Positions 5,510 to 24,464 of a DNA stretch of 64,000 bases are shown here, piece by piece. The position numbers and the translations under genes are program-made. The notes beneath the pieces were generated by a model. That model was not told the DNA's origin. It saw only the letters and a program-made list of their open reading frames with translations, and made no database searches. The stretch comes from an uncultured Acidobacteriota bacterium (GTDB lineage Bacteria > Acidobacteriota > UBA6911): assembly GCA_963809485.1 (NCBI GenBank), contig CAWEJX010000012.1:78185-142184 (forward strand). The letters run 5' to 3'. Positions within the stretch are counted from its first letter, which is position 1. Every line of letters starts with the position of its first letter.

Positions 5510-5524
5510 TCTCGTCCCGATCGT

Positions 5525-6851: not shown

Positions 6852-8577
6852 CTACTCAGCCGGCAGGATTTTTTCCCAGTTTGCCGGCAATTGGATCCTT
6901 TTGCTGACCGGGGGCCCTTGCTCGTGGTTTTGGACATAGCCTCTGCTGCGATTTCGCCCGGAGTCCCCACTGACCACAATCCCAATCCATTCGGGCTTCA
7001 AAAATACCGGAACCATTCTTGCCGGATCGTCTGACTCGCAATACAGGTGTGAAATCAGCTTCTCGTCCACCCTTCGGCGCAGGCTGAAGCCGGTAAAACC
7101 TCCCTGCCAGGCGAGTCTTTCCATTGAGGCCACAGACACCTTGGAGTGGTCATACAAATACTGCTGCACGTCCTTTTTCTGCAACCCGTCTTTTGCCAGC
7201 ACGCGTGCTATGCTTGGACTGATTACCAATAAAGGAAAAAATTTCCCCCAATTGACGGCCATGTGGGTCCAGGTCGACATGGCTCCCCCGAACACTTCCA
7301 CGAATGTGTCCAGGTGGTCCCTGGCTTTATCCCCTCCACTGGCAATCGGCGCTGTTGCGTATACAACACTCTGGACGGTGACGACACTATCGTCGGGTTT
7401 AAAGCCGCGAGAAACGCTGAACGATTCCCATCCAAGCTCGGTCAATACATCCTCATTCTCGGCCAGAGCTACCTTGAATGTTTCACCGATCGTCGCCTTA
7501 TCCGTTGTTCCGGGTGGTATCCGCAAACCGGCCACATTCCTCATGAACAGCCTCAAAAAGCGGCCCATGCTGGTATTGGCCTGGCGGCCAACTCGCATCA
7601 CCCCGGTTTCATAGTTGATATTCAGGTCTTTTATTATGGGGCCATTGAGAACAATCAGCGGCTCCCAGCCGGGGGTACTGCCGGCATCCTCAATCCGGAA
7701 TTCAGGATCGGAAACAGCCTCTATAACGGCCAGGAGAACGGGCATATATTCCGGTCTGCACCCTGCCATTACGCCGTTAACAGCGATGTTCCAGACCGTG
7801 GCCGCCCGGCTTTCGGGAAGCAAAATCCCGATGACTTCTTCCCGCGACCGGTCCGTAAATTGAAGAAACTTTTCGACTCTGTCGATGGTCGGAGGGATCA
7901 CCGGGAGACCATCGGTCCATTGTCTCCTGATAAAAAACTCCTGAACTTCATCCAAAGTCCCCCGGAAAATGATTTGGTCCGGTTCCGGTTCTTTTGTTCT
8001 GGCCGCCTGCGTTACAGGTTTGGTAAATACCTGAATGATATTGTCGACAAGGGTACCGGTAACCTTTTGGATCAACTCTTCCCGGCTGTCTACGGACACC
8101 ACGCCTGGATACTCCGCCACGGGCAGATTCTGGACTCCCAGGCTCTGGCCCACTGTCTGGACTTGTTTCAAAAAGCCGGTGGTGATAATCGAGGCTGAAG
8201 GAATGCCGGCTTTTTCAGCAACTACGCTTGCCCGCGCAACCGCGGGCGAGCAGCTGCCTCAGCCTCCGACTCCGGATATAACGGCATCACAGCCGATATT
8301 GACGAAGTCTGTCTGCCAGGGTGGCAATGATCTCGGCTTCTTGCGGGCCATGCGTATTGCCGAAGGTCTCATATTCAATGAATTTTACACCCGGATATCG
8401 CTCGGACAGTGAGGCTCGGATGAGAGGAAAAATTTCTTCCGCCCTGAAACCGTAGTCCGACAACTCACAGATAGTCTTGCCGGATAAATCCGCAATTCGA
8501 GGCGCCAGGGTTACCTTTTCAGATATTATTTTCCCAAGAGGCCATACAACTTCGTATCCCGTCTCTTGCATCATCAA
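6852..8577 (-). CDS. Two-domain UGSC-type selenoprotein (N-terminal UGSC module plus uncharacterised C-domain). Sec codon is at 8261..8259. A +1 frame break lies near 8310.
   Basis: ORF 8287..8577 gives the N-module (APRIADLSGKTI...). In the next frame I read FVNIGCDAVISGVGG-TGA-GSCSPAVARASVVAEKAGIPSASIITTGF. That reading continues in frame into ORF 6852..8171 (WTDGLPVIPPT, NGVMAGCRPEYMPVLLA). Confidence 0.75.
8230..8247 (-). promoter_or_regulatory. SECIS-like stem-loop 11 nt downstream of the UGA at 8261..8259
   Basis: The mRNA reads UGA-GGCAGCUGCUC-[GCCCGCG GUUG CGCGGGC], a 7-bp GC stem. The GGUU sequence sits at the apex. Confidence 0.55.
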
Positions 8578-8667
8578 TCTCCCGATCTCGCCGTGGATAC
8601 ACGGCTTTCAGCATATTCGCCTCAAAAAACCGATCCTCTCTATCCCAATGCAATTGGCGGATACACC

Positions 8668-10389
8668 TTATTTAATCGTCGGACTTCCCCATCCTCCGTA
8701 TTTAGAGAGGAGGGAGTGCCAGTTTTGAGGAACGTGTATCGGTTTGGTTACAAAATGCGATGGCCCATATCCCCAGGTCCCTATATAGGCAATCATGTCG
8801 GGACCGGGGCCTCCAGCAACGCAGACCTTGAGGCTTTCCGGATTGAGAAGCAGCGGTACCGGGGCATTCGGGTCTTTCTGATGTTTTTCAATAACCCATT
8901 TCGGCAGCCTGCAGAATCCCGGGGCTTCCCTTCCGTCGAACACCTCGTTTCCGGGCAACTGGATTCTTTCGTATAGCTTTTCCTGGAGTTTCTTTCTGGA
9001 AAAACCTTCCCGACGGATAGCCTCAAATGCAGTCGGCGAAATAAGCACCAGATTGTTGTAGATACAGTTAAGAGCATACCGGTCATATTTCGCTTTTGCC
9101 TGGAGGCTAATATGGGAAATGATTCTCTCGACGGAAGGAGGAGTCGGCAATACCAGGTCCGGCTGCCAGGACATGGCCGGCATCACGCTGATTGTCGGCT
9201 GATCGTCAGGAAATCCTTCGGCGACTCGCAATGGTTCCCATGCGCCTGAGTATGCCGATTCATTCTCTCCTATCAGGGAGTAATATCTGAAAGGGCTCCC
9301 GAAGGCTTTCATGTCATTGATGCCGGGCCAGGTTTGGCCCAGGTTCATCATTATCAGCTTAAGCGCCCGCCCGATCGCTGCATTCGCTTTCCATCCCGGA
9401 CCCACTGTGCAAAAACTATCATTTATATTGAGTTCATCGATCAGCTTTTTCCCGCTGACAACAAAGAAAGGAGCCACCTGGCCGGATGTGCACTGCACGC
9501 CTATGAGGTCAAACAAGGGATCGATGATCGCTTCCACCGCAGCCAGGATGACGGGCATATGCTGCGGCAGGCACCCGGCCATCGCCGCATTGACCGCGAT
9601 CTTCTCTATGGTCGCGTTCACTCCACTGGGAGGGAACCGGGCTATGACGTGCTCGCGCGGCAAGGATGCCCCTTCAAGCATTCTTGCCACTGCCTCTTCC
9701 GTCGGCGGTGCCAGCGGCAAGCCATCGCTCCAGCCATGATTCAGGAAAAAGCGCTCCATTTCCTCCTGAGCTGCAAGGAAATCCTTGCCGCCGAATGCCA
9801 GACTCGCTTCATTGACTTCCGGTATCTCAGGAGGCTGCGGGGACCACCGGGTCAAAGATCTGACAACCTCGTCCGCAACCTTCTCGGCTATCTCCAATTT
9901 CTCAATTTCCTCTGCAGGCGGTACATAATCCAAAATCAACGGAGCCACTGCCAGGTCTTCCAAACCTTCGCTCCTTGCAAGAAACCTGGCGTTGGATTTA
10001 AAACAGTTTGTGACTATGAATGCCACCGGCTTCCCCAATTTCTCAATACGGATGGCATCCGGGGCGGTTCGGGTCGTGCTGCCTCCCGACATTCCCATCG
10101 CGACGATCACGGCATCGCTATTGTCGGCAACCTCTCTGAGTTTAGCCGCCCTGGCATCCGCATCCCCCAGCACCGACATTTCCCACGTGCGGAATTCGGC
10201 GTCGGGCATTCTGTTTCTCAGGGCCTTGTCCAGGTAAGGATAGAATATCTGGCCCACCGGGACGCGGTTTCTGAGGATGCCGATCTTCACCCCATTCAGG
10301 TCCTTCAGACGAGGCGCATTGGGTATTGGAGCAATCTCCGAACTCGCCGTGGGATTCAAAACCCTCAGATGCGTTTGGCCGCTGGTCAC
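8668..10389 (-). CDS. Two-domain family paralogue in which the U-x-x-C pair is replaced by SGGS
   Basis: SDAVIVAMGM-SGGS-TTRTAPDAIRIEKLGKPVAFIVTN aligns with the ...GD-UGSC-T... region of the paralogues. The C-domain has GWSDGLPLAPPT, NAAMAGCLPQHMPVILAA, ANAAIGRALKL and ENE. The probable start is GTG 10389 after GGGAGGA. A TTG at 10410 is the alternative. Confidence 0.75.
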   Translation of the reverse strand: MTSGQTHLRVLNPTASSEIAPIPNAPRLKDLNGVKIGILRNRVPVGQIFYPYLDKALRNRMPDAEFRTWEMSVLGDADARAAKLREVADNSDAVIVAMGMSGGSTTRTAPDAIRIEKLGKPVAFIVTNCFKSNARFLARSEGLEDLAVAPLILDYVPPAEEIEKLEIAEKVADEVVRSLTRWSPQPPEIPEVNEASLAFGGKDFLAAQEEMERFFLNHGWSDGLPLAPPTEEAVARMLEGASLPREHVIARFPPSGVNATIEKIAVNAAMAGCLPQHMPVILAAVEAIIDPLFDLIGVQCTSGQVAPFFVVSGKKLIDELNINDSFCTVGPGWKANAAIGRALKLIMMNLGQTWPGINDMKAFGSPFRYYSLIGENESAYSGAWEPLRVAEGFPDDQPTISVMPAMSWQPDLVLPTPPSVERIISHISLQAKAKYDRYALNCIYNNLVLISPTAFEAIRREGFSRKKLQEKLYERIQLPGNEVFDGREAPGFCRLPKWVIEKHQKDPNAPVPLLLNPESLKVCVAGGPGPDMIAYIGTWGYGPSHFVTKPIHVPQNWHSLLSKYGGWGSPTIK

Positions 10390-10414
10390 GTTGGTATCCT
10401 CCCGGAGCAATGCA

Positions 10415-11440
10415 TTATTTCGGCCGGATCCCTTTCGAATAATTCACCCGGCCTACATAGAATTCCTCCTCAGGCTCGCGCGGCGTTACACCTGCCCTTT
10501 TCAGGCCTGCCCGCATGGCATCCTTCAAGCGCTGGAACAGGAATGACGTCGGTTTCCTGAACATGCCTCCATTCCCGCCAGTCAGCCACTGCATGTATTT
10601 CATTCCCAGCATCCCGCCCTGAAACGCGGCATCCCGGGCGCCCATAATTATCGGAGTCAGCTCCCAGTAGAGTTCCATCCCTTTGGAGAACTCTCCTTGA
10701 GCGAACAGATTGAACATCCGGACTATTCTTGGATTCTCCGCTGTCTGGTCGAAGATTACGTAGTCGGCCGGCCCCGCCCACTGTTGTCCGTATTTGGCGA
10801 CAGTGATCGGCCATTCCGCCATTTCTGCGGCCTGAAGCAGCACTTGATCGCCGACACGATGGTGAACGTCAACCCACTTTCCAAGGCCGTCACTGAGATA
10901 GGCCTTTATTGCCACTACGTTGGGTATTTGACAGATTCTCTCGATGAGCGCCGGATTGAACATGCTTGGATGAAATCTTCCGAAATCGTAAAAAGGTTTC
11001 GGCCAGAGATCGACAGCGAGGTTGATGGAATCGCATATCTTTTGGGTGACGCGATAGATGTCCTCTTCCGATTTGGCATAAAAGTTGCCCGGCCAGCCCA
11101 AAAGAGTGTGGGTTCCGCCCACGCTTTCGAAATAATTCAGCAATTCTATCGATTGATCGGCATCGTCAAGGGCTCCGAACATGGACACAAGAACTTTGCC
11201 CTTGGCTTCTTCAGCGACAATTCTTACAAATTGCCTGCGCTCTTCATTGCTCAAAGCGCTGACTTCTAAGGCGCAAAATACGCTGAACATGCCTTTTTCT
11301 ATGTTGTGCCTGACGTCGTGCCGGATCCCTTCCTCATCCAGCGCCTCGAGGTCCGGAGTGTACGAGGGTTGAATGACTCCATCCAATCCGCGATAGTGCT
11401 TTTTGGCCCATGCCTTCGCTTCTGGTTTTGTAAATTCCAT
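10415..11440 (-). CDS. Dihydrodipicolinate synthase / N-acetylneuraminate lyase family (class I aldolase) protein
   Basis: The ORF is 341 aa. The family layout is present, with the putative Schiff-base Lys in IPNVVAIKAY. It is a paralogue of 11513..12559 and 16828..17874. Confidence 0.7.
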   Translation of the reverse strand: MEFTKPEAKAWAKKHYRGLDGVIQPSYTPDLEALDEEGIRHDVRHNIEKGMFSVFCALEVSALSNEERRQFVRIVAEEAKGKVLVSMFGALDDADQSIELLNYFESVGGTHTLLGWPGNFYAKSEEDIYRVTQKICDSINLAVDLWPKPFYDFGRFHPSMFNPALIERICQIPNVVAIKAYLSDGLGKWVDVHHRVGDQVLLQAAEMAEWPITVAKYGQQWAGPADYVIFDQTAENPRIVRMFNLFAQGEFSKGMELYWELTPIIMGARDAAFQGGMLGMKYMQWLTGGNGGMFRKPTSFLFQRLKDAMRAGLKRAGVTPREPEEEFYVGRVNYSKGIRPK

Positions 11441-11512
11441 AAACAGCTCCTTGCAGTGGTGATAACGCGTTTTATCCGTTATCGCATATACATAGGTGTC
11501 TTCTATTTCGTG

Positions 11513-12559
11513 TCATGCCTCATATTTTTTGAGCCTGTAACCTTTTGCATAATTTACGCGGCCCACATAAAACTCCTCCTCCGGCTCACGCGGAGTAATT
11601 CCCAGGGCTTTCATACCGGCCCTGATGGCATCCTTTTGATAATCGTACAGACGGCCTGTAGGCTGCCGGACGGTTCCGCCATTTCCGCCGGCGCACCAGT
11701 GAGCGTATTTATCCGATAGAGCGGTCACGATGCCGGTGTGAAAGTAGGAATCCGCCAACGACCCCTGTGCGCCCGGCCGGGACATCCCCCAGAAGATATC
11801 CATAGCCTTGTCGATCTCGCCCTTGATTAAATTGTCGAATATCCTCACGATTCGCGGATTCTCAGGAGTCTGCATACAATAAAAAGGCCCTGCGCCGGCC
11901 CACTGCTGCCCGTACTTCGGGATAGTGAAAAACCATCTGTCCGGCATCGGATCACTGACCAGGATTCGATCACCGCAAAGATGGAAAGCCTGAATGGTGA
12001 GTGCAAGGGAACTGCCGCCGGTGACTTTCATCGCCACGACGTTGGGGATGTCGCAAATTCGGCGCATCACGTCCGGCGGGAAATAACTTGGATGGAAATG
12101 CCATGTGTGCAGCCGGCCGGGATAAAACGTTATTGCCAGGTTGGTGGACTCGCACATGAATTTATACATCTGGAAAATGTCTTCTTCCGACCGGGGGTAA
12201 TATTGCACCGGATGGGCAAGCGTGACATGAGTGCCGCCGACCTTTTCGATATGATGCAGCATCTCGATATCCTGCTCGACCGTGTCCTGCATGACGCTTA
12301 CGGAACTGTGCATTTTGCCTTTGGCTTCGTCGCAGACTATCTGCACGAATTGCTTCCGTTCCTCGAATGTCATGCCGCAGGCCTCGGGCGCAGCCATTAT
12401 CGAAGTAAAGCCATTGGCGTAAATCTGGTTGACATCGAAACGGATGCCATCGTCATCCAGCTTTTCAAGGTCGGGAGTGAAAGAAGGGAAAATCGGCACT
12501 TCCAGGCCTTTCATATGCTTCTTTGCCCACAATTTAGCTTCTGATTTGGTGTATTCCAT
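11513..12559 (-). CDS. DapA/NAL-family class I aldolase paralogue
   Basis: The ORF is 348 aa, with IPNVVAMKVTGG. It is about 75% identical at the protein level to 16828..17874. Confidence 0.7.
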   Translation of the reverse strand: MEYTKSEAKLWAKKHMKGLEVPIFPSFTPDLEKLDDDGIRFDVNQIYANGFTSIMAAPEACGMTFEERKQFVQIVCDEAKGKMHSSVSVMQDTVEQDIEMLHHIEKVGGTHVTLAHPVQYYPRSEEDIFQMYKFMCESTNLAITFYPGRLHTWHFHPSYFPPDVMRRICDIPNVVAMKVTGGSSLALTIQAFHLCGDRILVSDPMPDRWFFTIPKYGQQWAGAGPFYCMQTPENPRIVRIFDNLIKGEIDKAMDIFWGMSRPGAQGSLADSYFHTGIVTALSDKYAHWCAGGNGGTVRQPTGRLYDYQKDAIRAGMKALGITPREPEEEFYVGRVNYAKGYRLKKYEA

Positions 12560-12625
12560 ATTTGTCTCCCCGGTCCGATTGCAGATTTCCGATTGAATAA
12601 GGTCTATTCAATCCGCGACCCGCGG

Positions 12626-13679
12626 TTATTCAATCACCCTGGTAATAGAGCCATTCCCAAAGGTTGGAATAAAGCATGAATGCTTTCCCGGTCCACCCAA
12701 AACCATTACGACAAAGTCATCCTTATGGGCGATCGGCATCCATTCACAGTCTGTAAATTCACCATACTTTTCAGGGAATTTTCTCCTGTACTGGAGATTT
12801 TCTTCAGACAAACTCTTTTTAGAGAAGCGAGCATTTTCAAAAAGAAATTCCCTAATCTGCTCCTTTGAAAATCCGTCTTTGGCGATCGCCGCTGCATGTT
12901 CCGGGCACAGCATCAAGACAGGTTCGCCGGTGAAAAAAAGCGCATTGTTGCTGCCCGGTTGAGCCATAGTAGCGGCAATGGTCCTCAATAAGTCTTTGCC
13001 AAGGACACTGTTATGTTCATTGATATTGTGGGGGCCTTCCGCAGCAAACACAGTGACCGTGCTATCCCCGGCTTTGAAAGCCTCTCTCAACATGGAAAGG
13101 CTGCCACGGACTTTCCTCTTCGTTTTCGGCAACGCAGTAGGTGTATTTTCCAGGCTGACCCTGCGTGGACTTGTCGATCTCGCCCGGCATGGCCCCTCCG
13201 ATGTTGATCAGGATCAACCTGACGGCGCGGCCTATGGTTGCATTGGCTCTGACTCCAGGTCCGAATGCATTGCCTTTGCCGTTCAATCCTATTCTTTGCG
13301 CGATGGGACCGTTGACCACGATCAAGGGACTGCAGGGATGCGTTGTTGATTGCACGCCCCGGAGCCCGAATTTCTCATCAGACATCGCCTTCAGGGCAGC
13401 GACAATCACCGGCAAATACTCGGGCAGGCATCCAGCCATCACGGCATTGATGGCAGTCTTTTCCAGCGTGGCGGCTCCCATCCTTGGAGGAAGGATCGCC
13501 ACAACTTCCTGCGGATCCCCATTGCCGATAGCGGACAGCATTCTGCGTACCCGCTCCTCCGTGGGTGCGATGATCGGCAGGCCGTCGCTCCAGCCAAACT
13601 TGATGAAGGCGTTGTTTACAGCGTCTTCACAATTCTCAACGCGAACTTTTTTCGATACCAGCCTGCGGACGTTTTCCAC
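12626..13679 (-). CDS. Stand-alone C-domain of the two-domain family (no UGSC module); +1 frame break near 13076
   Basis: GTG 13679 follows GAGGTGAT. The sequence reads FGWSDGLPIIAPT, INAVMAGCLPEYLPVIVAA, ANATIGRAVRLILINIGG and AENEEESPWQPFHVERGF. It then continues in the +1 frame as KAGDSTVTVFAAEG..., which is ORF 12626..13132. Confidence 0.75.
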
Positions 13680-13700
13680 CGGAGATCACCTCTGCATGAA

Positions 13701-14579
13701 TCAGGCGCTCAATCCGAGCAGTTTGGCCGGATTTTTCTTGGCCATCAGGGTAATTTCTTCCTCGCCTATGCCATATTTAATCAAAGTGACTATAAACATT
13801 CTCATGCCTTCGACAGGCAGCGGGTTCCATATTTGCCCGAGATCCGTCGACATAATGCACTTTTCGGCGCCCACTGCCTTGATTACGTCCACCATCTCGG
13901 CGGGATCATGTCTGAACTCGGATGCCTGGAAGGCCAGGAAGGTGCACTCGATAAAAGCGCCGTTCTTTGCCAGCTGAATCAGATCCTGCTTGGTGAAAGC
14001 CTCGGAAAAAAACTCGTGATCCAGAGGATGCGTGACCACAAATTTATCGATGCCCAATCTGCGGGCTTCCGCTTCCAGGGCAAACGTCTCGGTCGGCGAC
14101 ATGTGCCCGCTTGCCAGAACCATATCGTGTTTCTTGATGATCGGGAGCATCGGACCGATCTCCGGCACCAGGCGCCCCTTGCTATCCAGGATCGAGTACC
14201 CCTCTCCTTTAAGGGGAAGCCCGAGTCCTCTCATTTTGGAAATGGAGTTGGTGGATGAGAATGTCGGCATCCAGACCACGCGCGCCCCTGCTCTCGCGGA
14301 ATATTCGACCGCATACACATTCAATCCGCCCATTTCATAGTCCAGGCAGACGCTGCCAAATGCGGTGAAATCAGGAACCAGCTGGTTCACCATCATCGCT
14401 ATTGGAGCGGACGGGTAGAAGTGGTTTTTTATGACGAAGGCTTTCATCCCGGCCTGCTTCGCCTGATTGGCAGCTTCCAGTGCATCCACCCGGCATTTGA
14501 AGGCGTCGGGGCCGGGATGAAAATGCATATCGATGGATCCTGACAGCAATTCGTCATAGTCAATGATCTTCATGGCCAT
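13701..14579 (-). CDS. Metal-dependent hydrolase of the amidohydrolase superfamily
   Basis: The ORF is 292 aa. It has an N-terminal H-x-H motif (SIDMHFHPGPD), later His and Asp residues, and a TIM-barrel-sized length. It sits between the stand-alone UGSC gene and the stand-alone C-domain gene. Confidence 0.6.
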   Translation of the reverse strand: MAMKIIDYDELLSGSIDMHFHPGPDAFKCRVDALEAANQAKQAGMKAFVIKNHFYPSAPIAMMVNQLVPDFTAFGSVCLDYEMGGLNVYAVEYSARAGARVVWMPTFSSTNSISKMRGLGLPLKGEGYSILDSKGRLVPEIGPMLPIIKKHDMVLASGHMSPTETFALEAEARRLGIDKFVVTHPLDHEFFSEAFTKQDLIQLAKNGAFIECTFLAFQASEFRHDPAEMVDVIKAVGAEKCIMSTDLGQIWNPLPVEGMRMFIVTLIKYGIGEEEITLMAKKNPAKLLGLSA

Positions 14580-14590
14580 GTGTGCTCTCC

Positions 14591-15164
14591 CTATCGCGTG
14601 CCGACAAGCACCGCGACTATGGTATCAACAGCATTTTCAGCCTTTTTTCGCACTTCCTCCGGGGTAACGCCTGCAAGGGGATGCGGAATCGTAACCAGGC
14701 GCGGAGCCGATATCCCCCTGGCCATGTGAAACTGATTTGGCCAACGACAGGAATGCATCGCTGCAAATGATGGCCGTCGGAATCCCTCTCTTTTCCAATT
14801 CTGTCGAATCGTGGATACTCCACGATGTGCAGGAACCTCAATCGCAGATCCCATAAACAATGGCGTCACATTTGGGCGCAAGCTGCTTCATCTCTTCCGG
14901 AGTCAGGGGAACCGTCGCGCCGGTCCCTCCTTTTTTAATGTGGACAATCTCCGCAAATTGAAATTTTTGACGGAGTGCTGCTTCCACATGATCCAAAAAA
15001 ATATCGAAGTTGGGTTTGCGGTTATCCACCAAGCCGATGACCTTGCCATTCAGGTCATCCAGACACATTGCGATGTGTTCTTGTTTTACAGTCGTGGTTG
15101 CAGTCGGATCCAATACTTCGATATATTCTTTCACTCTATTCGCCCTGAAATGTCGGAATTCCAA
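14591..15164 (-). CDS. Stand-alone UGSC-family selenoprotein (about 190 aa). Sec codon is at 14840..14838. A +1 frame break lies near 14732.
   Basis: ...KCDAIVYGICD-TGA-GSCTSWSIHDSTELEKRGIPTAIICSDAFLSLAKS. The sequence then continues in the +1 frame as HMARGISAPRLVTIPHPLAGVTPEEVRKKAENAVDTIVAVLVGTR, which is the tail of ORF 14591..14881. Confidence 0.75.
14808..14826 (-). promoter_or_regulatory. SECIS-like stem-loop 11 nt downstream of the UGA at 14840..14838
   Basis: The mRNA reads UGA-GGUUCCUGCAC-[AUCGUGGA GUA UCCACGAU], an 8-bp stem. Confidence 0.55.
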
Positions 15165-15169
15165 AAACT

Positions 15170-16090
15170 CTACAGTTGATCCATCAGCCTTTGTATCGCG
15201 ATTGCTGCCGTCGCGCCATCTCCTACTGCAGTGACTATCTGTCCCCGGGAATTGCTTCGGATGTCACCCGCCGCGAAAATATTGGGGAGGTTTGTTTGCA
15301 TCATTTCATTCACCAGAATGCGTCCCTGGTTGTCGAGTGACAGTAGATTTCTGATAAAGCCGGTGTTCGGATCGGTTCCCACGGCGATCAGGACGCCATC
15401 GATACTGAGGGTTTCGGTCTTTTGTGTCGCCCTGTCGTAAATCTCAACCGCTTCAACCTTGCCGCTACCTGATATCTTGACCAGCTCTGCGCCGCATCGA
15501 AGCTCGATCTTGCTATTGGAACTAATCCTTTCCTTGAGAACCGCGGAAGCGGAAATCGTCCCTTCGACCTCGATCAGATACACTTTGGCTGCGATCCTGG
15601 CCAGGTAGAGAGCCTCGGTGACGCCCCTGTCTCCGGCGCCGCATACAACCACTGTCTTATCGTGAAACTGACCGCCGTCACAAAGAGCGCAATCAAATAC
15701 GCCCTTCTCCTCCAGTTCCCGCTCCCCGGGTATATTCAGTTTCCTGGGACGGCAGCCGCTGGCAATTATCAGCACTTTAGCCGTGAAGTATCTCCCGTCG
15801 GTCAGCTGCACGCAGGTCGATTCGGAATACGATTCGATCCCGGCGACCTCGGCCATTTCCATCTGCAGGCCCGAGTTGACGGCCTGGATCGTCATTTCCG
15901 AAGCCAGCTGGGGCCCTGCGACGCCGTCACTGAATCCGGGATAATTCTCGATCCAGTCGGCATTCTTAATGCTGCCGCCAAAACCATCCTTATCAACCAG
16001 CAGGGTCCGATACTTGCCCCGGCTCAAATAGAGGCCGGCCGTAAGCCCCGCAGGGCCTCCACCAATTATTATGGCATCAAAGTCCCACAT
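15170..16090 (-). CDS. Thioredoxin-reductase-like pyridine nucleotide-disulfide oxidoreductase
   Basis: The ORF is 306 aa. It has FDAIIIGGGPAGLTAG (FAD-binding), the redox motif CALCDG in the position of the TrxB CATCDG, a second Rossmann fold (VVVCGAGDRGVTEA) and a C-terminal AAGD motif. It is the first gene of the long minus-strand gene string. Confidence 0.75.
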   Translation of the reverse strand: MWDFDAIIIGGGPAGLTAGLYLSRGKYRTLLVDKDGFGGSIKNADWIENYPGFSDGVAGPQLASEMTIQAVNSGLQMEMAEVAGIESYSESTCVQLTDGRYFTAKVLIIASGCRPRKLNIPGERELEEKGVFDCALCDGGQFHDKTVVVCGAGDRGVTEALYLARIAAKVYLIEVEGTISASAVLKERISSNSKIELRCGAELVKISGSGKVEAVEIYDRATQKTETLSIDGVLIAVGTDPNTGFIRNLLSLDNQGRILVNEMMQTNLPNIFAAGDIRSNSRGQIVTAVGDGATAAIAIQRLMDQL

Positions 16091-16235
16091 CGATTCCTCC
16101 TCTCGGTCTTGCGCATGCCGGAGGATGGCCGGACAATTGGAACTCCCAAGTGACGGGAGTATGCCTCAGGCGGAGGAGCTGATCCCTGATCAGGATGCAC
16201 CCCGCTGAGCCAATCGGATCATTTACCCGAAGCTA

Positions 16236-16302
16236 TTGACAAAAATCATAAACTACTTTATATCTAACCTACATTATGTACGTATACGTACTAGGGTACG
16301 AA
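16236..16302 (+). promoter_or_regulatory. Sigma70-like promoter followed by a perfect 14-bp palindromic operator
   Basis: TTGACA is at 16236-16241, then a 17-nt spacer, then TATATC at 16259-16264. GTACGTATACGTAC is at 16278-16291, followed by the flank TAGGGTACGAA. The element lies in the divergent control region between 16090 (minus) and 16828 (plus). Confidence 0.55.
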
Positions 16303-16399
16303 TAATTTTTTCTTATCATACGTAAAGCTTGGTTTAAAATCAAAATAAAAGGAAAATGAAGGTCAGGTCGCGCATCCGCTGAACCAATGATCTTGTTTT

Positions 16400-16790
16400 C
16401 GAGAATGTTTTCCGCAGCCGGGCATCCTGGGAGCCTGGACGGTTTCAATGCATTTATGAATGGAATCAATTCCAAAACCAACAACTGGAAAGATACCGTG
16501 ATTCTCGACTGGCGGGATAAGGTGGCTGGGGGATGGAACCGATCAATGAAGCCTCCATGGGGATGGCTTCGGTCCCCTGCTTCGATAGCGGGCTGATTTA
16601 TGCCACGACGGACAAGTACTATCACGGGTGCAACGGCGGTATGCTGAGACAGCCGGTGCCGGGATTGTATGATTATCAGAAACCGAGGATTCGGGCATCT
16701 TTAACAGCCGGGGGAATGACTCCGCGATAAGCTCAAGAAGAAAAGTTCTACGTAGGCAGGACCAATTATGCCGGAGGAGCGAGGTAAGGA
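16400..16790 (+). pseudogene. Relic of a DapA/NAL-family gene: the C-terminal third only, with frame changes and an in-frame TAA
   Basis: ...ATTDKYYHGCNGGMLRQPVPGLYDYQKPRIRASLTAGGMTPR-TAA-AQEEKFYVGRTNYAGGAR matches ...SDKYSHWCNGGNGGTVRQPTGRLHDYQKERIRAGLRALGFTPREPEEEFYVGRVNYAKGAR of the intact copy immediately downstream. Confidence 0.65.
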
Positions 16791-16827
16791 ACCAGGGTTC
16801 AATAAAACGTGGAGGGCGGAATAGAGA

Positions 16828-17874
16828 ATGGAATTTTCCAAGCATGATGCCAAGGACTGGGCAAAACAGAATCTGAAAGGACTGGAAGCAGTAATTTTCC
16901 CGTCATTTACACCGGATTTGAAAGAACTCGACGAAGAGGGCGTTCGATACGATGTAAATCATCTTATTGCCAACGGTTTTACATCTGCATTGGTCGCGCC
17001 GGAAACCTGCGGAATGACTTTTGAAGAGCGAAAAAGGCTTGTCGAAATAGTGTGCGACGAAGCAAAGGGGAAAATACACACGTCGGTCGCTGTGATGCAG
17101 GATAGCGTCGAAGAAGATATCGAGATGCTGCAGCATATCGAAAAAGTCGGAGGAACCTTTGCCTTGCTCGGCCACCCGGTACAGTACCATCCCCGGTCGG
17201 TCGAGGATATTTTCGGGATGTATAAACACATGTGCGATTCGACAAATATCGCGATAGTGTTTTACGCCGGTCGACTCCATACCAGGAAATTTCATCCGAG
17301 CTGTTTTCCTCCCGAGCTCCTGCCACGGATAGCCGATATCCCTAATGTTGTAGCCATGAAAGTCGGCGGAGGGAGTTCGATGGCAATCACGGTGATGTCT
17401 TTTCGTCTGTGCGGCGATAAAATCCTGGTCAACGACCCGACGCCCGACAGGTGGTTTGTTACCGTGCCCCAATACGGTCAGCAATGGGCAGGCGCCGCGC
17501 CTTTTTACGCAATGCAAACTCCCGAAAGACCGCGTATGGTTAATATGTTTAATCTGCTGGTGAAGGGTGAAATAGATAAAGCAATGGATATTTACTGGGA
17601 GGCGGCTTCTCCTGCAGAAGGCGGAGAAGAACCGGCCGGCTCCTATTTTCATTCGGGTGTTGTTACCGCTTTGAGCGATAAATATTCACACTGGTGCAAC
17701 GGGGGCAACGGCGGTACCGTCCGGCAACCTACAGGCCGGCTCCACGACTACCAGAAAGAGAGGATAAGGGCAGGGCTGAGAGCGCTGGGATTTACTCCTC
17801 GTGAACCCGAAGAGGAATTTTACGTCGGCAGGGTTAACTACGCCAAGGGAGCCAGATTGAAAAAATACACTTAA
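16828..17874 (+). CDS. DapA/NAL-family class I aldolase paralogue
   Basis: The ORF is 348 aa. A GGAGGG ribosome-binding site precedes it, and it carries IPNVVAMKVGGG. Confidence 0.7.
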   Translation: MEFSKHDAKDWAKQNLKGLEAVIFPSFTPDLKELDEEGVRYDVNHLIANGFTSALVAPETCGMTFEERKRLVEIVCDEAKGKIHTSVAVMQDSVEEDIEMLQHIEKVGGTFALLGHPVQYHPRSVEDIFGMYKHMCDSTNIAIVFYAGRLHTRKFHPSCFPPELLPRIADIPNVVAMKVGGGSSMAITVMSFRLCGDKILVNDPTPDRWFVTVPQYGQQWAGAAPFYAMQTPERPRMVNMFNLLVKGEIDKAMDIYWEAASPAEGGEEPAGSYFHSGVVTALSDKYSHWCNGGNGGTVRQPTGRLHDYQKERIRAGLRALGFTPREPEEEFYVGRVNYAKGARLKKYT

Positions 17875-18004
17875 TGCTGGTCCGGTTGACTTCGCACCCT
17901 ATCACATAATGCTCTACGCCACGTCGGAAAAAGATTTTTACCAGGCGACCCCAAAATGCATGCGATGCTTCCAGCGTAACCGTAGACCTCTGGTTTAACC
18001 ACTA

Positions 18005-18320
18005 TCGGCTAAAGCCGGTAGAATCCTTTGCGACTGAAAGTCGCTGGCGGCGAAAGCCACTTGAGGCCCGAAGGGCCGGCATTGAATTGGCCCGGCCGTC
18101 AGGCCGGGAAGAGGATCGAGGCTAACAAGAGCGCCAAAGGCGCGGCACCTTCATTCCCGTTTGTGCCGGCCCTTCGGGCCTCATTGCCCAACAAGTTCAA
18201 TCCCGAGCTGACGCTCCGGCCTATTTCTTGCCGGCCCTTCGGGCCTGAAAATCAAGCTGAAAGATTACCGCCTGAAAGGCGATGGGCTTGAACCGGGCGA
18301 TTGAGCTAAAGGCGCAGGTT
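18005..18320 (+). repeat. Cluster of about 9 short GC-rich hairpins with A-rich or UUC loops, including an 18-20-nt repeat present three times
   Basis: The hairpins include cggc-taaa-gccg, gcgac-tgaaa-gtcgc, ggc-gaaa-gcc, ggccc-gaa-gggcc, cccggcc-gtca-ggccggg, gcgcc-aaa-ggcgc, ggccc-ttc-gggcc (twice) and cgcc-tgaaa-ggcg. The sequence tgaggcccgaagggccggca (18062-18081) recurs as its reverse complement near 18164-18183 and about 18229-18246. Confidence 0.5.
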
Positions 18321-18361
18321 AAAGTATTGGGCTGCTTCTGCACATTTAACACAGATATATA

Positions 18362-18375
18362 CAGCGTATACATAC
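18362..18375 (+). promoter_or_regulatory. Degenerate copy (10 of 14) of the GTACGTATACGTAC operator, upstream of the GRE gene
   Basis: CAGCGTATACATAC lies 75 nt upstream of ATG 18450. A second ACGTATAC half-site is at 18398-18405. Confidence 0.3.
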
Positions 18376-18449
18376 GGTGATTATCTTATTTCAGGCAACG
18401 TATACTCTGCACGGAAACAGGGACAGGATAACGGCGAGGGGGGCAGAAA

Positions 18450-20952
18450 ATGGCGATTGAGTCTGGCAGCAAGTATGCCGAAGAAGTTGGATCATGGCAG
18501 GAAATTCTTATACCTGTCCGTTCCGCGCGGGTTGAAAAGGCCAGGGAAAGAGTGCGCAAAGAAGCCGAAATCTGCCTGGAACGCATTCGAGCCGAACTCA
18601 AGGCCTATAACCAGTATAAAGACCAGCCTTCCATCATTCAGCGAGCCCGCTTCCTTGAGACTTTCCTGAGGGAGAAAAGTGTGCTTATCCAGGAGGATGA
18701 ACTCATTATAGGTACCGTGGGAAGTAAGCCTCGCTCCGCTTTTATAACAACGGCGAATATCGCCTCTATCGAAGAAGAGCTGGATGATCCGGTAAAGGAC
18801 TTCTCAATACGGTCCTATGACAGGATTTTAGTTCATCCTGAGGAGAGAAAAGAACTGAGAGAAGAGATTATTCCGGCCGTTAAAGGCAGTGCCATCTCTC
18901 TTTTCGAGTATAATTTTAAAAATGTCGACCGGGATATTCTCGAACATGCCGCTCCCGGAGTCTCATCCTGTCCGCATATACCTATTATCGGTGACGTATC
19001 GATGGCAAGAGAAGGCGGCCACATGTTCCTCAACTTTGAAAAGGCCCTTTGTAAAGGGCTTAGAGGAATCAAGGAAGAGGTCAGGGAGAAGTTGGCGGAA
19101 CTTGACCAGCCATATCGCGGATTTGACCGAAAACAGAGACGAGAATTTTACGAATCCGTGCTCATCACCCTGAATGCCGCTACGGAATATTTCCAGAAAT
19201 ATGCCGGACGCGCGCGTGAGATGGCAGCAAAAGAAACAGATCCGAAACGAAGGACGGAACTGGAACATATTGCCGAGACATGCGACCGGGTGCCGGAAAA
19301 TCCCGCGCGGGACTGGTGGGAAGCTCTACAGTCCATCTGGTTCCTGTTCACTCTGAGTTGGATGGAACACGCCACTTTTGCAGTACATTTTCTCGGCCGA
19401 ATCGACCAGATTTTGTATCCCTTCTACAAGAAAACCGTAGAAGATGAGAAGAAAATGACCCGGGAAGAAGCTCTGGAGCTTCTGGAATGCTTCCTGGTGA
19501 AATTCAACGAACCAGCCTGGGCACTCAACTACGAGTGGTCGCAATGGGCAACCGGCCAGGGACTTTCCCAGACAATGGTGATCGGCGGACAGACCAGAGA
19601 GGGCAAAGATGCCTGCAACGAGGTTACCATGCTTGTACTGGAAGCTATGGAACAATTGCGTCTGAATCAGCCGGAATTCGCCATGAGGATATGGGAAGGG
19701 ACACCCGATAAATATCTTAAAAAGGCGACCGAGCTTATCCGCCTCGGGCTCGGCTATCCGAAATTCATCGGTGACCGGAAAGGAATTCAGATGGCAGCCA
19801 AGGCCTATCCGGACCTGACAATCGAAGACTGGCGCCAGTTCGCTGTTGCCGGATGTTCGGAGATAGGTCTGCCTTATATCACTATGGATAACGGTTATGA
19901 AGCAATCGCACTGGCCTCCAAGTGGATAGAGCTGGTCTTGAGTAACGGTAAATGCGCGGTATGCGGCAAGCAGATCGGACTGGAAACCGGCGATCCCAGG
20001 AAATTTGAATCTATGGAACAGGTGAAAGAGGCCTACCGCAAACAGGTATTCTACTGGGGCGAGTATATGGCAAAGGCCGAGAAGATTTTCAAGGAAAACC
20101 AGAGCGAATGGTATCCTGCTCCATTCTGCTCGGCCTTTACCGAAGGACCCCTTGACAGAGGGCGAGATATTACCAGGGGCGGCGCCTGGTACACCGTGTA
20201 CGGTTTCCTGCTGGCCAGCATCGCCGACGCAGCGGATTCTCTGGGAGTAATAGACAAGCTTATCTACCGTGATAAAAAGGTTACCTGGGACCAGCTGATT
20301 GAAGCGGTGAATGCCAACTGGGAAGGTTATGAAAACATAAGGCAGCTCTGCGTCAACGGTGTCCCAAAATACGGGAATGACGACGATTACGCCGACGGCT
20401 GGGCAATCTGGGTAGCCGATGTCTGGGCCGACCTTATAGACTGGCTCAATACCAGAAAAGACCTTATGCCGAGGTGGGGAGGCAGATATCTGGCAGGTGG
20501 CCTGGTGGCAATAGCCAGTACCCAGTTCGGAGAATCGATCGGCGCTACACCAAACGGGCGTAAACATCCCATGCCGGTGGCTGATACCTGCTCTCCTGTA
20601 CAGGGTGTCGACCGGAACGGTCCCAGCGCCGTGGTCAAGTCATTCAGTAAATTGCCTACTCACCGGTGGGCGCTCGGCGGTCTGATAAACATCCGGTTAA
20701 ATCCGAATCTGTTTACAACCGATGCTGACCTTGAGAGATTTGCGGCTTTTATTCAGAGCATGTGAAGAGTTAGGTCTGTACCATGTTCAGTTCAATATAA
20801 TTTCTGCGGAACTGCTGCGTAATGCAATGAAAGAACCGGAAAAATACCGGGACCTGCTGGTCCGGGTAGCCAGCTATGTCGCCTACTTTGTTGAGTTGAG
20901 TCCGAACCAGCAGATGGACATCATCAACAGAACCGAGCAACAGAGCTGGTAA
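18450..20952 (+). CDS. Glycyl-radical-enzyme family protein (PFL2 / dehydratase-eliminase type). A +1 frame break lies at about 20760. The radical-Gly position reads Ser.
   Basis: The N-terminal 771 aa are PFL2-like, with a Cys-loop AVAGCSEIG (C-x-E). The C-terminal radical domain lies in ORF 20722..20952: ...EELGLYHVQFNIISAELLRNAMKEPEKYRDLLVRVASYVAYFVELS. Removing base 20760 joins ...AAFIQS to CEELGLY.... Confidence 0.8.
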
Positions 20953-20985
20953 CAGACCAAAAGCGCACCGGGGAGGGGTATCGGC

Positions 20986-21915
20986 TTGACGAATAAATCG
21001 GCTGACCCTGCAAAGAAACGACATGTCCTCAGCATTACCCGGATGACAGTTCATAACGGACCCGGGATACGAACCTTAATACTTCTGAAAGGCTGTCCTT
21101 TACGCTGCATCTGGTGTTCCACACCCGAATCCCGGAAAGAGACCCCGGAAATCGCTTTCTACCCGCATCAGTGTATCCTCTGTAACGACTGTATTCCGGT
21201 CTGTCCGAAGAACGCGATAGCAACCGGTGATAGAGCGGTGGTCATAGACAGGGAGTTATGTGATAACTGCGGGCGGTGCGTCGATGTATGCAACACGGAA
21301 GCCCTGAGGCTCCTGGGACAGCAATATACAGCAGACGAACTCGTCCACGAGGTGATGAAGGACGAAATTGTCCATAAACATTCCGGCGGCGGAGCAACAG
21401 TCTCGGGAGGAGAGCCTCTGCTTGAACCTGAGTTTGCCGCCGAATTGCTCCGCTCTCTTAAGGAGAACGGAATTAATACCGGAGCGGATACCTGCGGTTT
21501 TGTCCCCCGAAAAAATATCGAGGCCGTCCTCCCCTATGTCGATTTTTTTCTCTGGGATATCAAACACATGGATGATGATACCCACCGCAAACTGACCGGA
21601 GTATCCAACCGTCTCATCCTGGACAATCTTTGTTTTGCTTCGGGCAATAATATCCCGGTTTATTTGAAAGTACCCGTGATACCCGGCTGCAATGATTCCG
21701 AGGAAAACCTCAGGGCTGTCTGTAATTTCGCCGGAGACCTGCACTCGCTGGTTGAGATAAACCTCCTGCCGTTGCACCATCTGGGCAAGGCCAGATATGC
21801 TGCTCTGGGCCTCGATTACCCCATAGACGGGATTCCTTTCATTAAGGATGATGTTCTCACGGAGATGAAACGCCTGGCAGAATCATACGGATTAAAATGC
21901 AGCATAATCGGGTAA
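20986..21915 (+). CDS. Glycyl-radical enzyme activating enzyme (radical SAM)
   Basis: HNGPGIRTLILLKGCPLRCIWCSTPE carries the CX3CX2C motif. Two ferredoxin-like Cys clusters follow (CILCNDCIPVCP and CDNCGRCVDVC). The start is TTG after GGGGAGGGG. Confidence 0.85.
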   Translation: MTNKSADPAKKRHVLSITRMTVHNGPGIRTLILLKGCPLRCIWCSTPESRKETPEIAFYPHQCILCNDCIPVCPKNAIATGDRAVVIDRELCDNCGRCVDVCNTEALRLLGQQYTADELVHEVMKDEIVHKHSGGGATVSGGEPLLEPEFAAELLRSLKENGINTGADTCGFVPRKNIEAVLPYVDFFLWDIKHMDDDTHRKLTGVSNRLILDNLCFASGNNIPVYLKVPVIPGCNDSEENLRAVCNFAGDLHSLVEINLLPLHHLGKARYAALGLDYPIDGIPFIKDDVLTEMKRLAESYGLKCSIIG

Positions 21916-21929
21916 CGGAGAAAAAAGAC

Positions 21930-22170
21930 GCAGAATCCCAATATCGACGAATTGCTCTCCGGCTCAATAGATATGCATCTTCATTCCGGTCCGGACGAGA
22001 TTCCGGGGCGCGCGGATGCCGGTGAAACCGCCGAACAGGCTGCCGACGTCGGAATGAAAGCCATCGTGCTGAAAACTACAGTTATCCCACCACCCCGGTG
22101 GCTATCATCGCCCGGGAGATGGCGCCTGAAGTTGAGGTTTTCGACCCTTACAACTGTTCAAAAGGAATAA
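21930..22170 (+). pseudogene. Truncated relic of an amidohydrolase, the N-terminal ~70 aa, paralogous to 13701..14579
   Basis: IDELLSGSIDMHLHSGPDE...AADVGMKAIVLK compares with IIDYDELLSGSIDMHFHPGPDA...AKQAGMKAFVIK. After a -1 shift, YSYPTTPVAIIAREMAPEVEVF compares with HFYPSAPIAMMVNQLVPDFTAF. The next gene then cuts it off. Confidence 0.6.
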
Positions 22171-22192
22171 AGTGGAAGAAAGGAGAGAAATC

Positions 22193-24034
22193 ATGCGACG
22201 TTTTAGAATAGCATTAATCTGTTTATGTGCTCTGGGCATTGTGTTAGCGGTATACGTGGTGACCAAAGGAGGTATAGAGGATGATACCTTAACAAGCAAG
22301 AAAGTAACAGTGCTGAACCCGAGAGGTATAGCTCCTCCAATCGAAATGATACCCATGGCACCCAGGCTTGACACCCTGGAGGGCAAAACAATATACCTCG
22401 CAGGTATAAATTTCCAACCGTTGCATCAAGGCATGATAGAAATCCACAGAATACTCGCCGAAAAATATCCCAAAACCACCTTTATACTCAAGGTCAAAGA
22501 GGGCTCCTACTTGGTTAATGACCAGAAGCTATGGGATGAAATCAAAGAAAAGGGCGACGGAGCGATAGTCGGTATCGGGCAGCTAGACACCAATGCACCG
22601 GCGACTGTCATCTTCTCCTCAATACTGGAAAAAATGGGGATACCCACGGCACCTGTTGTCACCGCAGGGTTTCCGAATCTCACAAGAAGCTTCGCGTACA
22701 AGAAGGGGATGCCTGAACTGCGATTGACTTTTATTCCCCATCCTTTCTCAGCCAGACCAGTCGAAGTACAACGGGAATATATAAAGGGTAAAGATCCCAT
22801 AAGCGGCAAACCAATTATTGAACAAATCGTTGAGGCCCTCACCAAACCGCTAACCGATAAAGAACGAAAGACAGGTACCATAGAAAGACCCATACGAAGA
22901 ATCCTGGGGCCTGATACTCCCGAGAACCTGGCCAAGCTCTTTCTTGAAAACGGATGGACGGACGGTCTTCCGATAATTCTTCCTACGCAAGCAAGGGTAG
23001 CCGCGATGCTCAAGGGAACAAGCCACAAGCCTGATGAAGTAATCGGCATGATGCAGCCCACTCCTCCTAACGAGGCATGGGAAGGCTCTTTAAGGCAACT
23101 TGGCGGTAGTCAGGCGAAAGGAGGAGCTGAATTACCGGTAACGATGCAGCCTTCGCCTCCCTACGAGTCCTGGCAATATACTGTGGAGCATGTCGCTATC
23201 AATGCCGTGATGGCGGGAGCCAGTAAAGAGCATTTTCCTGTTATACTATCTATAGCCTCCACAGGAGTAACCTCATTATTCAGTTCCTGTTCCTCTTTCG
23301 CCAGGATGGTTGTCGCCAACGGGCCAATCCGCAAAGAGATAAAGATGAATTCCGGACTGGCCGCGTTGGGCCCCTTCAATCATGCCAATTCCGTCATCGG
23401 AAGGGCGTGGACGCTGATATCCAAGAATCTGGGAGGCTCGATACCGGGTGAAACATATCTGGGTGATCTGGGTAATGCCCTCAACTACAACAATTTATGT
23501 TTTGCGGAGAATGAAGAGGCACTGCCCGAAGGATGGAGTCCCCTGCATGTGCAGAAAGGCTTCAAACCTGAAGAAAGCGTTGTCAGTATCTTGAGCGGGT
23601 GGAGTTTGATTAATTATGGTGCTTTTAAGCCGTACCCGATTCACGAGGTCGCCAGGAAATTGTTTATAAGCTTTGAAACCAGCGGAGCCAGTATGGGTCG
23701 CCCTACTCTGTTATTAAGTCCCATAACGGCAACAGATCTAAAGAATGAAGGCTTCGAGAGTAAGGAGAAGTTGAGCCAGTGGCTCAAGGAAAATACCTAT
23801 ATGACCCTCTGGAATTACTGGGCGATGAGGCCTAAGGACTTAGCATCCGCTAAAGCAGGAATCGAGCCATTCGCCTCAATGCTAAAACAGTCCCCGGGGG
23901 CATACTCACCGCAAAAATCTCTCGCGCCCAACTCACAGGTTGAGATATTGGTAGTCGGTGGGGGGACCGAGGTATCCTGGCAGGCCGGAGACTTCGGGTA
24001 CATGGTATCCGCATCGGTGGATAAGTGGAGGTAG
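22193..24034 (+). CDS. Two-domain family paralogue with a hydrophobic N-terminal anchor or signal; the U-x-x-C pair is replaced by LDTN
   Basis: MRRFRIALICLCALGIVLAVYVV is followed later by APRLDTLEGKTIYL. ...GDGAIVGIGQ-LDTN-APATVIFSSILEKMGIPTAPVVTAGF aligns residue for residue with the USTC paralogue at 56602. The C-domain has GWTDGLPIILPT, INAVMAGASKEHFPVILS and AENEE. Confidence 0.75.
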   Translation: MRRFRIALICLCALGIVLAVYVVTKGGIEDDTLTSKKVTVLNPRGIAPPIEMIPMAPRLDTLEGKTIYLAGINFQPLHQGMIEIHRILAEKYPKTTFILKVKEGSYLVNDQKLWDEIKEKGDGAIVGIGQLDTNAPATVIFSSILEKMGIPTAPVVTAGFPNLTRSFAYKKGMPELRLTFIPHPFSARPVEVQREYIKGKDPISGKPIIEQIVEALTKPLTDKERKTGTIERPIRRILGPDTPENLAKLFLENGWTDGLPIILPTQARVAAMLKGTSHKPDEVIGMMQPTPPNEAWEGSLRQLGGSQAKGGAELPVTMQPSPPYESWQYTVEHVAINAVMAGASKEHFPVILSIASTGVTSLFSSCSSFARMVVANGPIRKEIKMNSGLAALGPFNHANSVIGRAWTLISKNLGGSIPGETYLGDLGNALNYNNLCFAENEEALPEGWSPLHVQKGFKPEESVVSILSGWSLINYGAFKPYPIHEVARKLFISFETSGASMGRPTLLLSPITATDLKNEGFESKEKLSQWLKENTYMTLWNYWAMRPKDLASAKAGIEPFASMLKQSPGAYSPQKSLAPNSQVEILVVGGGTEVSWQAGDFGYMVSASVDKWR

Positions 24035-24464
24035 AACAGCCGGGAGAGATTGATATGGCAGGGATAGGACTGTCCTCTTCCCGCTAGCTGGCCAAAAAGC
24101 TCGCGAGGTCGAGAGCACGGAAAATTTGGTTTTGCTGGCTATCCATGCGAGTAAGAGTACGCTCGGAGCGCGGGCGGCCACCGATATTGAGCTTTTCGGC
24201 GGGATGAGCAGGATAATAATTTGTGATTTCCTTGATCCTTTTGAGCTGCTCCTTCATGCGCGACTGCGGCAATTCTGCATGCTCGGGTCTGCGAGGGGGG
24301 GCGGTCGTTGATAGGTTAGGGTGTTCCTATTCGGGCACACAGCCGGAAACGTCCGATGCAGACAAGACGACATCTAAAGACCCTATTGTGGCTTCCCCTA
24401 CTCGGCGGGTCAAGATAGTAGCGTGTATTAGTTACAAAGTCGAACACGAAGAAAGGAGAAAGTG

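Follow-up and report, generated by a model that had tools for sequence, protein, structure and literature searches.

A conserved 26-bp element at three sites of a catabolic island from an uncultured Acidobacteriota bacterium as a probable operator of a MarR-type repressor

Introduction

The locus studied here raises the question of whether a 14-bp palindrome that recurs beside different gene sets of one catabolic island is the operator of a single regulator, and if so, of which one. The first-pass annotation had listed up to four copies of the palindrome, and proposed either that one dimeric regulator ties the adjoining genes into a regulon or that the motif belongs to a conserved 5'-leader. 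The inverted repeats to which MarR-family dimers bind are located in promoters, often in the intergenic DNA adjoining the gene of the dimer itself, and the family is autoregulatory (PMC5487221).

The island was analyzed in a 64-kb stretch of DNA, denoted as the window. The minus strand contains an operon at 491-16090 that runs from a TrxR-like gene through UGSC selenoprotein genes with in-frame TGA, DUF6282 and two DapA-like genes to more UGSC genes, and ends with copy 3 of the palindrome followed by four CoA-transferase genes and a MaoC hydratase gene. Downstream of copy 1, the plus strand carries gene remnants, a DapA-like gene, a glycyl radical enzyme (GRE) gene with its activase gene, UGSC genes and an amidohydrolase gene, after which come copy 2 and xanthine-dehydrogenase-family Mo-enzyme genes. 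The island as a whole has five CoA-transferase genes, a MaoC hydratase gene and an acyl-CoA dehydrogenase gene, and no tRNA genes were found in the window. The UGSC-family (seleno)protein genes, found together with the TrxR-like gene and DUF6282, are dense and number at least eight (6852-8577, 8668-10410, 14591-15164, 22172-24034, 27610-29433, 41044-42993, 45277-46953 and 56602-58320), and the in-frame TGA that splits several of them probably encodes selenocysteine.

Results

Three copies of a 26-bp element

A pattern search of the window located the palindrome GTACGTATACGTAC exactly at 16278-16291 (copy 1) and 29715-29728 (copy 2) on the plus strand, and a copy matching 13 of 14 positions, GTACGTATACGTAT, at 6774-6787 on the minus strand (copy 3), in agreement with the first-pass annotation. 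When up to three mismatches to GTACGTATACGTAC were allowed, these were the only matches in the window, and dinucleotide shuffles (n = 100) gave a mean of 0.49 matches, with none of the 100 reaching three. Each palindrome is followed by an oriented flank, and the full element of about 26 bp reads T-GTACGTATACGTAC-TAKGRTRCGAA. Copy 1 occupies 16277-16302 on the plus strand, with GTACGTATACGTAC followed by TAGGGTACGAA at 16292-16302, and copy 2 occupies 29714-29739 on the plus strand, with GTACGTATACGTAC followed by TATGATGCGAA at 29729-29739. Copy 3 occupies 6763-6788 on the minus strand, where GTACGTATACGTAT runs from 6787 down to 6774 and TATGGTACGAA from 6773 down to 6763. The conserved flank and the constant orientation toward the respective downstream gene, which had both been claimed for the motif, are present in all three copies.

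The whole element was scored with a 26-bp weight matrix derived from 10 instances, no two of them identical. Copies 1, 2 and 3 scored 40.4, 40.1 and 40.1 bits, respectively, while random windows peaked at 6.5-11 bits. In the orientation of the element, nothing else in the window exceeded the random maximum of 11 bits, and the one further score above this value, 20.9 bits, was the reverse-strand reading of the copy 2 palindrome. The earlier view that chance is a very unlikely explanation is thus supported for three sites, by three matches compared with 0.49 in shuffles and by 40 bits compared with at most 11.

The proposed fourth copy upstream of the GRE gene, CAGCGTATACATAC at 18362-18375 on the plus strand, matches 10 of 14 positions. 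It is one of nine matches with four mismatches in the window, where random sequence gives 6.8 ± 2.7, and it scores below 8 bits with the 26-bp matrix. Since this site is at chance level in both counts and matrix, we rejected it, and the sites number three rather than four. The intergenic region at 18364-18406, 5' of the GRE gene, also holds two CGTATAC cores 34 bp apart, the counts of which are not significant.

Position relative to predicted promoters

The promoter annotated in front of copy 1 was recovered in our analysis. It is predicted at 16236-16264 on the plus strand and consists of TTGACA (16236-16241), a 17-nt spacer and TATATC (16259-16264), with a gap of 13 nt between TATATC and the motif. 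The predicted promoter of copy 2 (29673-29701, plus strand) consists of TTGACA (29673-29678), a 17-nt spacer and TACGGT (29696-29701), and the two copies have one and the same layout, in which 17 nt separate TTGACA from a -10-like hexamer and a further 13 nt separate this hexamer from the element. This layout puts copies 1 and 2 just past the predicted transcription start, and the element of copy 1 would cover approximately +5 to +30 of the predicted transcript. When copies 1 and 2 of the window are compared, only the -35 hexamer, both spacings and the element are shared, and the remainder has diverged.

Both -10-like hexamers are non-canonical, and the copy 1 promoter was not called by a consensus promoter scanner because TATATC ends in C instead of the usual final T. 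At copy 2, a second promoter candidate, TTGATC-19-TACTAT, overlaps the palindrome. For copy 3, no convincing promoter could be defined, with TTGAAA-19-TATTAT in the window and TTGTCT-17-AATAAT in the related island L013 as candidates.

Layouts of other types were also compared. The MerR-type layout, which places a palindrome inside a spacer of 19 bp, agrees loosely with copies 2 and 3 and disagrees with copy 1, and the LysR T-N11-A box has the wrong spacing. An ORF at 16357 following copy 1 (MKVRSRIR-TGA) was rejected as a leader peptide, as it is not conserved in the related islands L015 and L016.

The leader of copy 1 also has an A/T-rich segment, AAGCTTGGTTTAAAATCAAAATAAAAGGAAAA (16325-16356), which is nearly invariant in L001, L006, L015 and L016 as well, while its flanks vary. 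The segment holds an imperfect palindrome, TTGGTTTAAAATCAA, that is FNR/CRP-like but has 5-nt spacing, and it overlaps promoter-like hexamers on both strands, namely plus-strand TTATCA-16-TAAAAT and minus-strand TTGATT-17-TATGAT, the latter of which faces the TrxR operon. This segment may be a second regulatory site or promoter.

Conservation of the element in related islands

The extended pattern was found in L001 and L002, which are contigs of an uncultured Acidobacteriota MAG, and in six metagenome contigs (L003-L008). All of these are orthologs of copy 1, 2 or 3 with 88-96% DNA identity, and outside relatives of the island the extended pattern gave no match. More distant islands with 78-83% protein identity (L015, L016 and L013/L014), which we reached via DUF6282 protein homologs, have variant forms of the element at the same two positions. 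Copy 1 is GTACGTGTACGTAC-TAGGATACGGA in L015, differs from this in L016 by an additional G in the flank, and is GTACGTATACGAAC-TAGGGTACGAT in L013. Copy 3 is GTACGTATACGAAT-AATGGCACGAA in L013 and GTACGTATACGAYT-AGTGAYRCGTA in L015 and L016.

The hexamers and both spacings of the copy 1 promoter are invariant among the window, L001, L006, L015, L016 and L013, while the spacer bases vary, and the copy 1 element is conserved with variation in L001, L006-L008, L015, L016 and L013. The promoter of copy 2 is conserved in L004, in which the flank is TACGATGCGAA. In the case of copy 3, atGTACGTATACGTATTATGGTACGAACATCTCT is invariant in L002, L003 and L005, and the element together with 8 further bases is invariant among these contigs and the window, while the 30 nt 5' of the element are highly variable. 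Among relatives at 73-96% identity, the element stays in place, while bases vary freely both within the 17-nt spacer and in the 13-nt gap. In L013, the promoter, palindrome and flank are retained, while the transcript beyond the flank is unrelated because different genes follow there. As such, the conserved unit is the promoter with the element and not the leader.

In still more distant islands (L009-L012, including 6.9- and 6.2-Mb contigs), the motif was absent and other palindromes were found before DUF6282, so the motif is specific to this lineage. Before the DUF6282 operon, L009 has a perfect palindrome, AAAAATGTCACA-ATTA-TGTGACATTTTT (9830-9860), and L010 has TTAAACAATTGTTTAA with a third half-site, TTAAACAA, 11 nt downstream (9845-9900). 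Judging from these sequences, the layout of a palindrome plus an oriented extra half-site is one that recurs with other sequence in distant relatives.

A literature search for TACGTATACGTA returned unrelated matches only and no operator of that sequence. Within the literature covered, the operator sequence is new, and the kind of switch is most likely an ordinary one. Among viral contigs, seven pattern matches were obtained, none of which is related to the window, and we take them as chance based on a rough estimate. One contig unrelated to the window, L022 from IMG/VR, contains TTTACA-aat-GTACGTATACGTAC-taat-GTACGTATGCATAC at 2789-2830, where the palindrome is followed by a direct partial repeat; this looks like an independent operator.

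Anatomy of the element

The 11 instances give the consensus T-GTACGT[A/g]TACG[T/a]A[C/t]-[T/a]A[G/T]G[A/G]T[A/g]CG[A/g/t]A, in which GTACGT.TACG, G18, C22 and G23 are invariant in all 11. The left 11 bases are nearly invariant save for A7G in two instances, and the right arm is degenerate in some, with the changes T12A, A13T/C and C14T occurring without a matching change in the left arm. Since the right-arm changes are uncompensated, perfect dyad symmetry is unnecessary and no hairpin, in RNA or DNA, is under selection.

The two palindrome halves, GTACGTA and TACGTAC, abut, and a third, weaker box, (G)TACGAA, lies four bases further. An equivalent description is three TACGWA boxes, placed at offsets 0, +6 and +18, of which boxes 1 and 2 read GTACGTATACG and box 3 is TACGAA. 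In the T12A variants, box 2 becomes identical to the box 3 consensus, TACGAA. With spacings of 6 and 12 bp, the three boxes are not all on one helix face. A model with strict spacing is weakened by L016, in which box 3 is displaced by one base compared with L015. At 14 bp, the palindrome is within the length of about 14-20 bp expected of a palindromic or pseudo-palindromic site for a winged-helix dimer.

Genes under the three copies

Copy 1 reads into gene remnants first, and the DapA-like gene starts 537 nt downstream. Copy 2 is located 150 nt upstream of the start of the Mo-enzyme large-subunit gene (29879). Copy 3 lies between the stop of a UGSC selenoprotein gene (6852) and the CoA-transferase ATG at 6730, with the annotated distance of 45 nt to this ATG.

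In L001, L006-L008, L015, L016 and the contig encoding P0004, the copy 1 promoter faces the Mo-enzyme operon directly, with the TrxR gene divergent. In the window, 13.4 kb (16478-29912) are inserted between copy 1 and the Mo genes. This module, which contains the DapA-like gene, the GRE gene with its activase gene, two large UGSC genes and the amidohydrolase gene, is absent in L001, L006-L008, L015 and L016, while the arrangement of L004 at copy 2 is the same as that of the window. The breakpoints are about 186 nt 3' of each motif copy, within the 5' end of the Mo gene, and the left joint holds a remnant of the Mo-gene start (16449-16500) and a C-terminal remnant of a DapA-like gene (16533-16730).

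Based on this gene order, the Mo operon is most likely under copy 2 and the CoA-transferase genes are most likely under copy 3. The GRE gene has no site of its own and lies in the 13.4-kb module behind copy 1, so it can belong to the regulon only by predicted read-through from copy 1. The first-pass proposal of a single regulon comprising the selenoprotein/CoA-transferase operon, the GRE gene and the Mo-enzyme operon is therefore retained in part. The Mo-enzyme operon and the distal CoA-transferase part of the minus-strand operon have their copies, while the TrxR/selenoprotein part is without a site and the GRE site at 18362 is noise.

The Mo-enzyme large-subunit gene (29873-32315) is spread over at least four frames in comparison with its intact 820-aa ortholog in L001. 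Its paralog (32956-35404) is also frame-shifted, and several other genes of the window look split, which suggests an indel-prone assembly or pseudogenes.

A candidate regulator beside the island

Among the ORFs of the window that were scanned, no transcription-factor domains were found, and tblastn of the candidate MarR described below gave no match in the window, which supports the annotated absence of a regulator gene there. When the last CoA-transferase gene was traced into the relative L020, a part of the L016 contig, a MarR-family gene was found to adjoin the island there. Following the CoA-transferase operon of L020 are a UGSC gene, a 173-aa ORF and then, on the opposite strand, the MarR-family gene, which encodes 174 aa and lies 2.4 kb past the last CoA-transferase gene. 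TATAAT-T-GTACGCATACGAAT is found in the 447 bp of intergenic DNA that separate the MarR gene from a divergently oriented esterase gene. On a 15-bp core matrix, the GTACGCATACGAAT site scores 19.7 bits, compared with 21.6 bits for copy 3 of the same genome, and 19.7 bits were reached by none of 3000 random intergenic sequences of the same composition and none of 100 random 21-kb loci. Thus, L020 has both a MarR gene beside the cluster and a related site upstream of it, although this site is without the conserved flank and differs at the invariant position 6.

The ortholog P0256, 77% identical to the MarR of L020, is encoded on a contig of 325,284 bp, and the CoA-transferase P0121 of the window is likewise on a contig of 325,284 bp. 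P0345, a 90%-cluster mate of P0256, is on a contig of 16,721 bp, which is also the length of CAYYTC010000096.1, the contig with the copy 3 ortholog L002. Homologs of MarR and CoA-transferase are furthermore found alike on contigs of 178404, 65547 and 29636 bp. The MarR gene is therefore linked to the island in at least three lineages, of which L020 was read directly and the others were deduced from contigs of equal length. By synteny, the MarR gene of the window genome should be located a few kb, about 2-6 kb, to the left of position 1.

The candidate MarR carries PF12802/PF01047. Among protein family models, HpaR, MprA and BilQ gave the best sequence matches, all below cut-off, and the closest solved relatives are 5e1w (E = 2.5e-10) and OhrR 1z91 (E = 6e-5), both of which are MarR-family structures. 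A literature search for 5E1W gave nothing relevant, and viral contigs contained no relative of the candidate MarR.

Alternative explanations

As all three copies are in predicted transcribed sequence and have a single orientation, we considered whether the element acts in the mRNA of a 5' leader or intercistronic region, either through attenuator hairpins (arm 1-2 against arm 2-3) or as the site of a UACG-reading protein. CGTAC-TAGG-GTACG followed by AATAATTTTT at copy 1 was flagged as terminator-like, and three direct TACG boxes could suit an RNA-binding protein that reads repeats. However, the U-run is confined to the copy 1 lineage and is missing from copies 2 and 3, and RNA folds of five versions gave z scores of -1.4 to +0.4 compared with shuffles, with structures differing between copies. 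The right-arm substitutions would disrupt the hairpin and are uncompensated, and the fixed distance to the conserved -35/-10 hexamers is a property at the DNA level. Scanning the whole window with Rfam at gathering scores gave no match, and a permissive scan of 16150-16500 gave a chance snoRNA match only (E = 0.34). The element thus has neither the secondary structure nor the curated-family match of a structured cis-regulatory RNA. Together with the unrelated transcript of L013, these results speak against the conserved 5'-leader of the first-pass annotation, and an RNA element seems highly improbable. A further explanation is that the repeat is a non-functional trace of duplication or recombination, in which promoters were copied with paralogous modules and the repeat marks insertion joints. 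The island is rich in paralogs and rearrangements, and the 13.4-kb module between copies 1 and 2 is missing from L001, L006-L008, L015 and L016. However, its breakpoints lie in the Mo gene rather than at the motif, and beyond the -35, the spacings and the 26-bp element, copies 1-3 cannot be aligned, unlike what a recent duplication would give. Furthermore, an element kept amid variable neighbors across lineages indicates constraint. With neither homology beyond the element nor breakpoints at the element, such a trace is scarcely credible. Considering the uncompensated right arm, the folds resembling those of shuffles, the absence of an Rfam match and the fixed distance to the hexamers, the element is very likely a DNA operator bound by a protein.

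The arguments for a protein-bound DNA operator hold equally for any other transcription factor, such as a TetR-, GntR- or IclR-type protein encoded elsewhere, in which case MarR would control only the divergent esterase gene. A perfect 14-bp palindrome is diagnostic of no single family. In addition, the motif-like site of L020 is imperfect in its flank and at position 6, and the same MarR/esterase intergenic region has a second palindrome, GTCAACTATTGAC (14225-14240), which could be the true site of MarR instead. On the other hand, no other regulator genes except a mobile-element resolvase were found in the 64-kb window and about 100 kb of related loci, the linkage of the MarR gene to the island extends over at least three lineages, and the motif-like site adjoining the MarR gene is far above chance. 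Weighing these points, we regard another factor as possible but unlikely, and assign the binding protein to the neighboring MarR with slightly better than even confidence.

Discussion

The recurrent palindrome of this island appears to be part of a 26-bp composite operator, which is probably that of one MarR-type repressor encoded beside the island, outside the window. In the mechanism we propose, one transcription factor would bind the composite operator, most likely as a repressor. At copies 1 and 2, it would sit directly 3' of the predicted start of transcription, while copy 3 would be an internal control point of the long minus-strand operon. Bound there, the factor would prevent initiation or early elongation, and a metabolite of the pathway would release it. 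It would most likely be a MarR-family winged-helix dimer (the ortholog P0256), and the third box could be the contact of a further dimer or half-dimer. The units controlled would be the Mo-hydroxylase operon at copy 2 and the CoA-transferase/MaoC genes at copy 3, and the copy 1 promoter would control whatever it reads, which is now the 13.4-kb inserted module including the GRE gene. That the factor represses, which protein binds and what kind of effector releases it are inferred from sequence; repression is favored since the element lies just past the predicted start site. The effector is possibly an aromatic acid or its CoA thioester, which is speculation, and a CoA thioester is plausible because the island has many CoA-transferases.

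The proposed switch resembles that of CouR, a MarR-family protein that represses p-hydroxycinnamate catabolism in Rhodococcus jostii RHA1 and whose regulon has one box at four promoters that is vacated upon binding of p-coumaroyl-CoA (PMC4737184). Both systems have a single short inverted repeat at several of the promoters in a catabolic gene cluster and, as regulator (here a candidate), a MarR dimer whose gene lies within or next to that cluster, and in both the pathway uses CoA thioesters, as suggested here by genes of CoA-transferases, MaoC hydratase and acyl-CoA dehydrogenase. Relief of repression by a pathway intermediate, demonstrated for CouR, is what we infer for the island. The CouR box, cATTGA-N5-TCAATg, overlaps the -35 box (PMC4737184). 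In contrast, the half-sites of the present element abut, the site is downstream of the predicted -10, and there is a third oriented box.

The OhrR/MarR family in general consists of winged-helix dimers that act on promoter palindromes, commonly beside their own gene, with which the PF12802/PF01047 domains of the candidate are consistent. OhrR operators have abutting 7-bp half-sites, TACAATT-AATTGTA, and this arrangement is common to OhrR operators and the present element. Unlike MarR operators in general, the element has an asymmetric third box at a fixed offset, and its sequence is new. Compared with attenuators and riboswitch leaders, the element shares a fixed place in the predicted 5' UTR, one orientation and, at copy 1, possible alternative hairpins, but it is without a conserved terminator, stable fold, covariation or Rfam match.

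A further idea, which we consider rather unlikely, is that the arrangement of TTGACA, 17 nt, the -10, 13 nt and three TACGWA boxes constitutes a portable promoter-operator cassette. If so, one cassette would receive newly acquired catabolic modules, such as the 13.4-kb GRE/UGSC/DapA-like module, and a second one would be kept or gained by the Mo-hydroxylase operon that they displace. In this way, one MarR-type sensor, possibly of an aromatic CoA thioester, would connect the genes of a selenoprotein-rich island for anaerobic degradation as it expands in uncultured Acidobacteriota. The asymmetric three boxes would then imply an unusual stoichiometry, with a dimer and an extra subunit or two overlapping dimers.

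While the regulatory mechanism itself is conventional, the putative operator provides a regulon signature for a large uncharacterised catabolic island in an uncultured Acidobacteriota, with its at least eight UGSC-family selenoprotein genes, DUF6282, DapA-like genes, Mo-hydroxylases, glycyl radical enzyme and many CoA-transferases. Together, the operator and the candidate MarR would offer a route to the substrate of the island, as the releasing ligand should be the substrate or an early intermediate.
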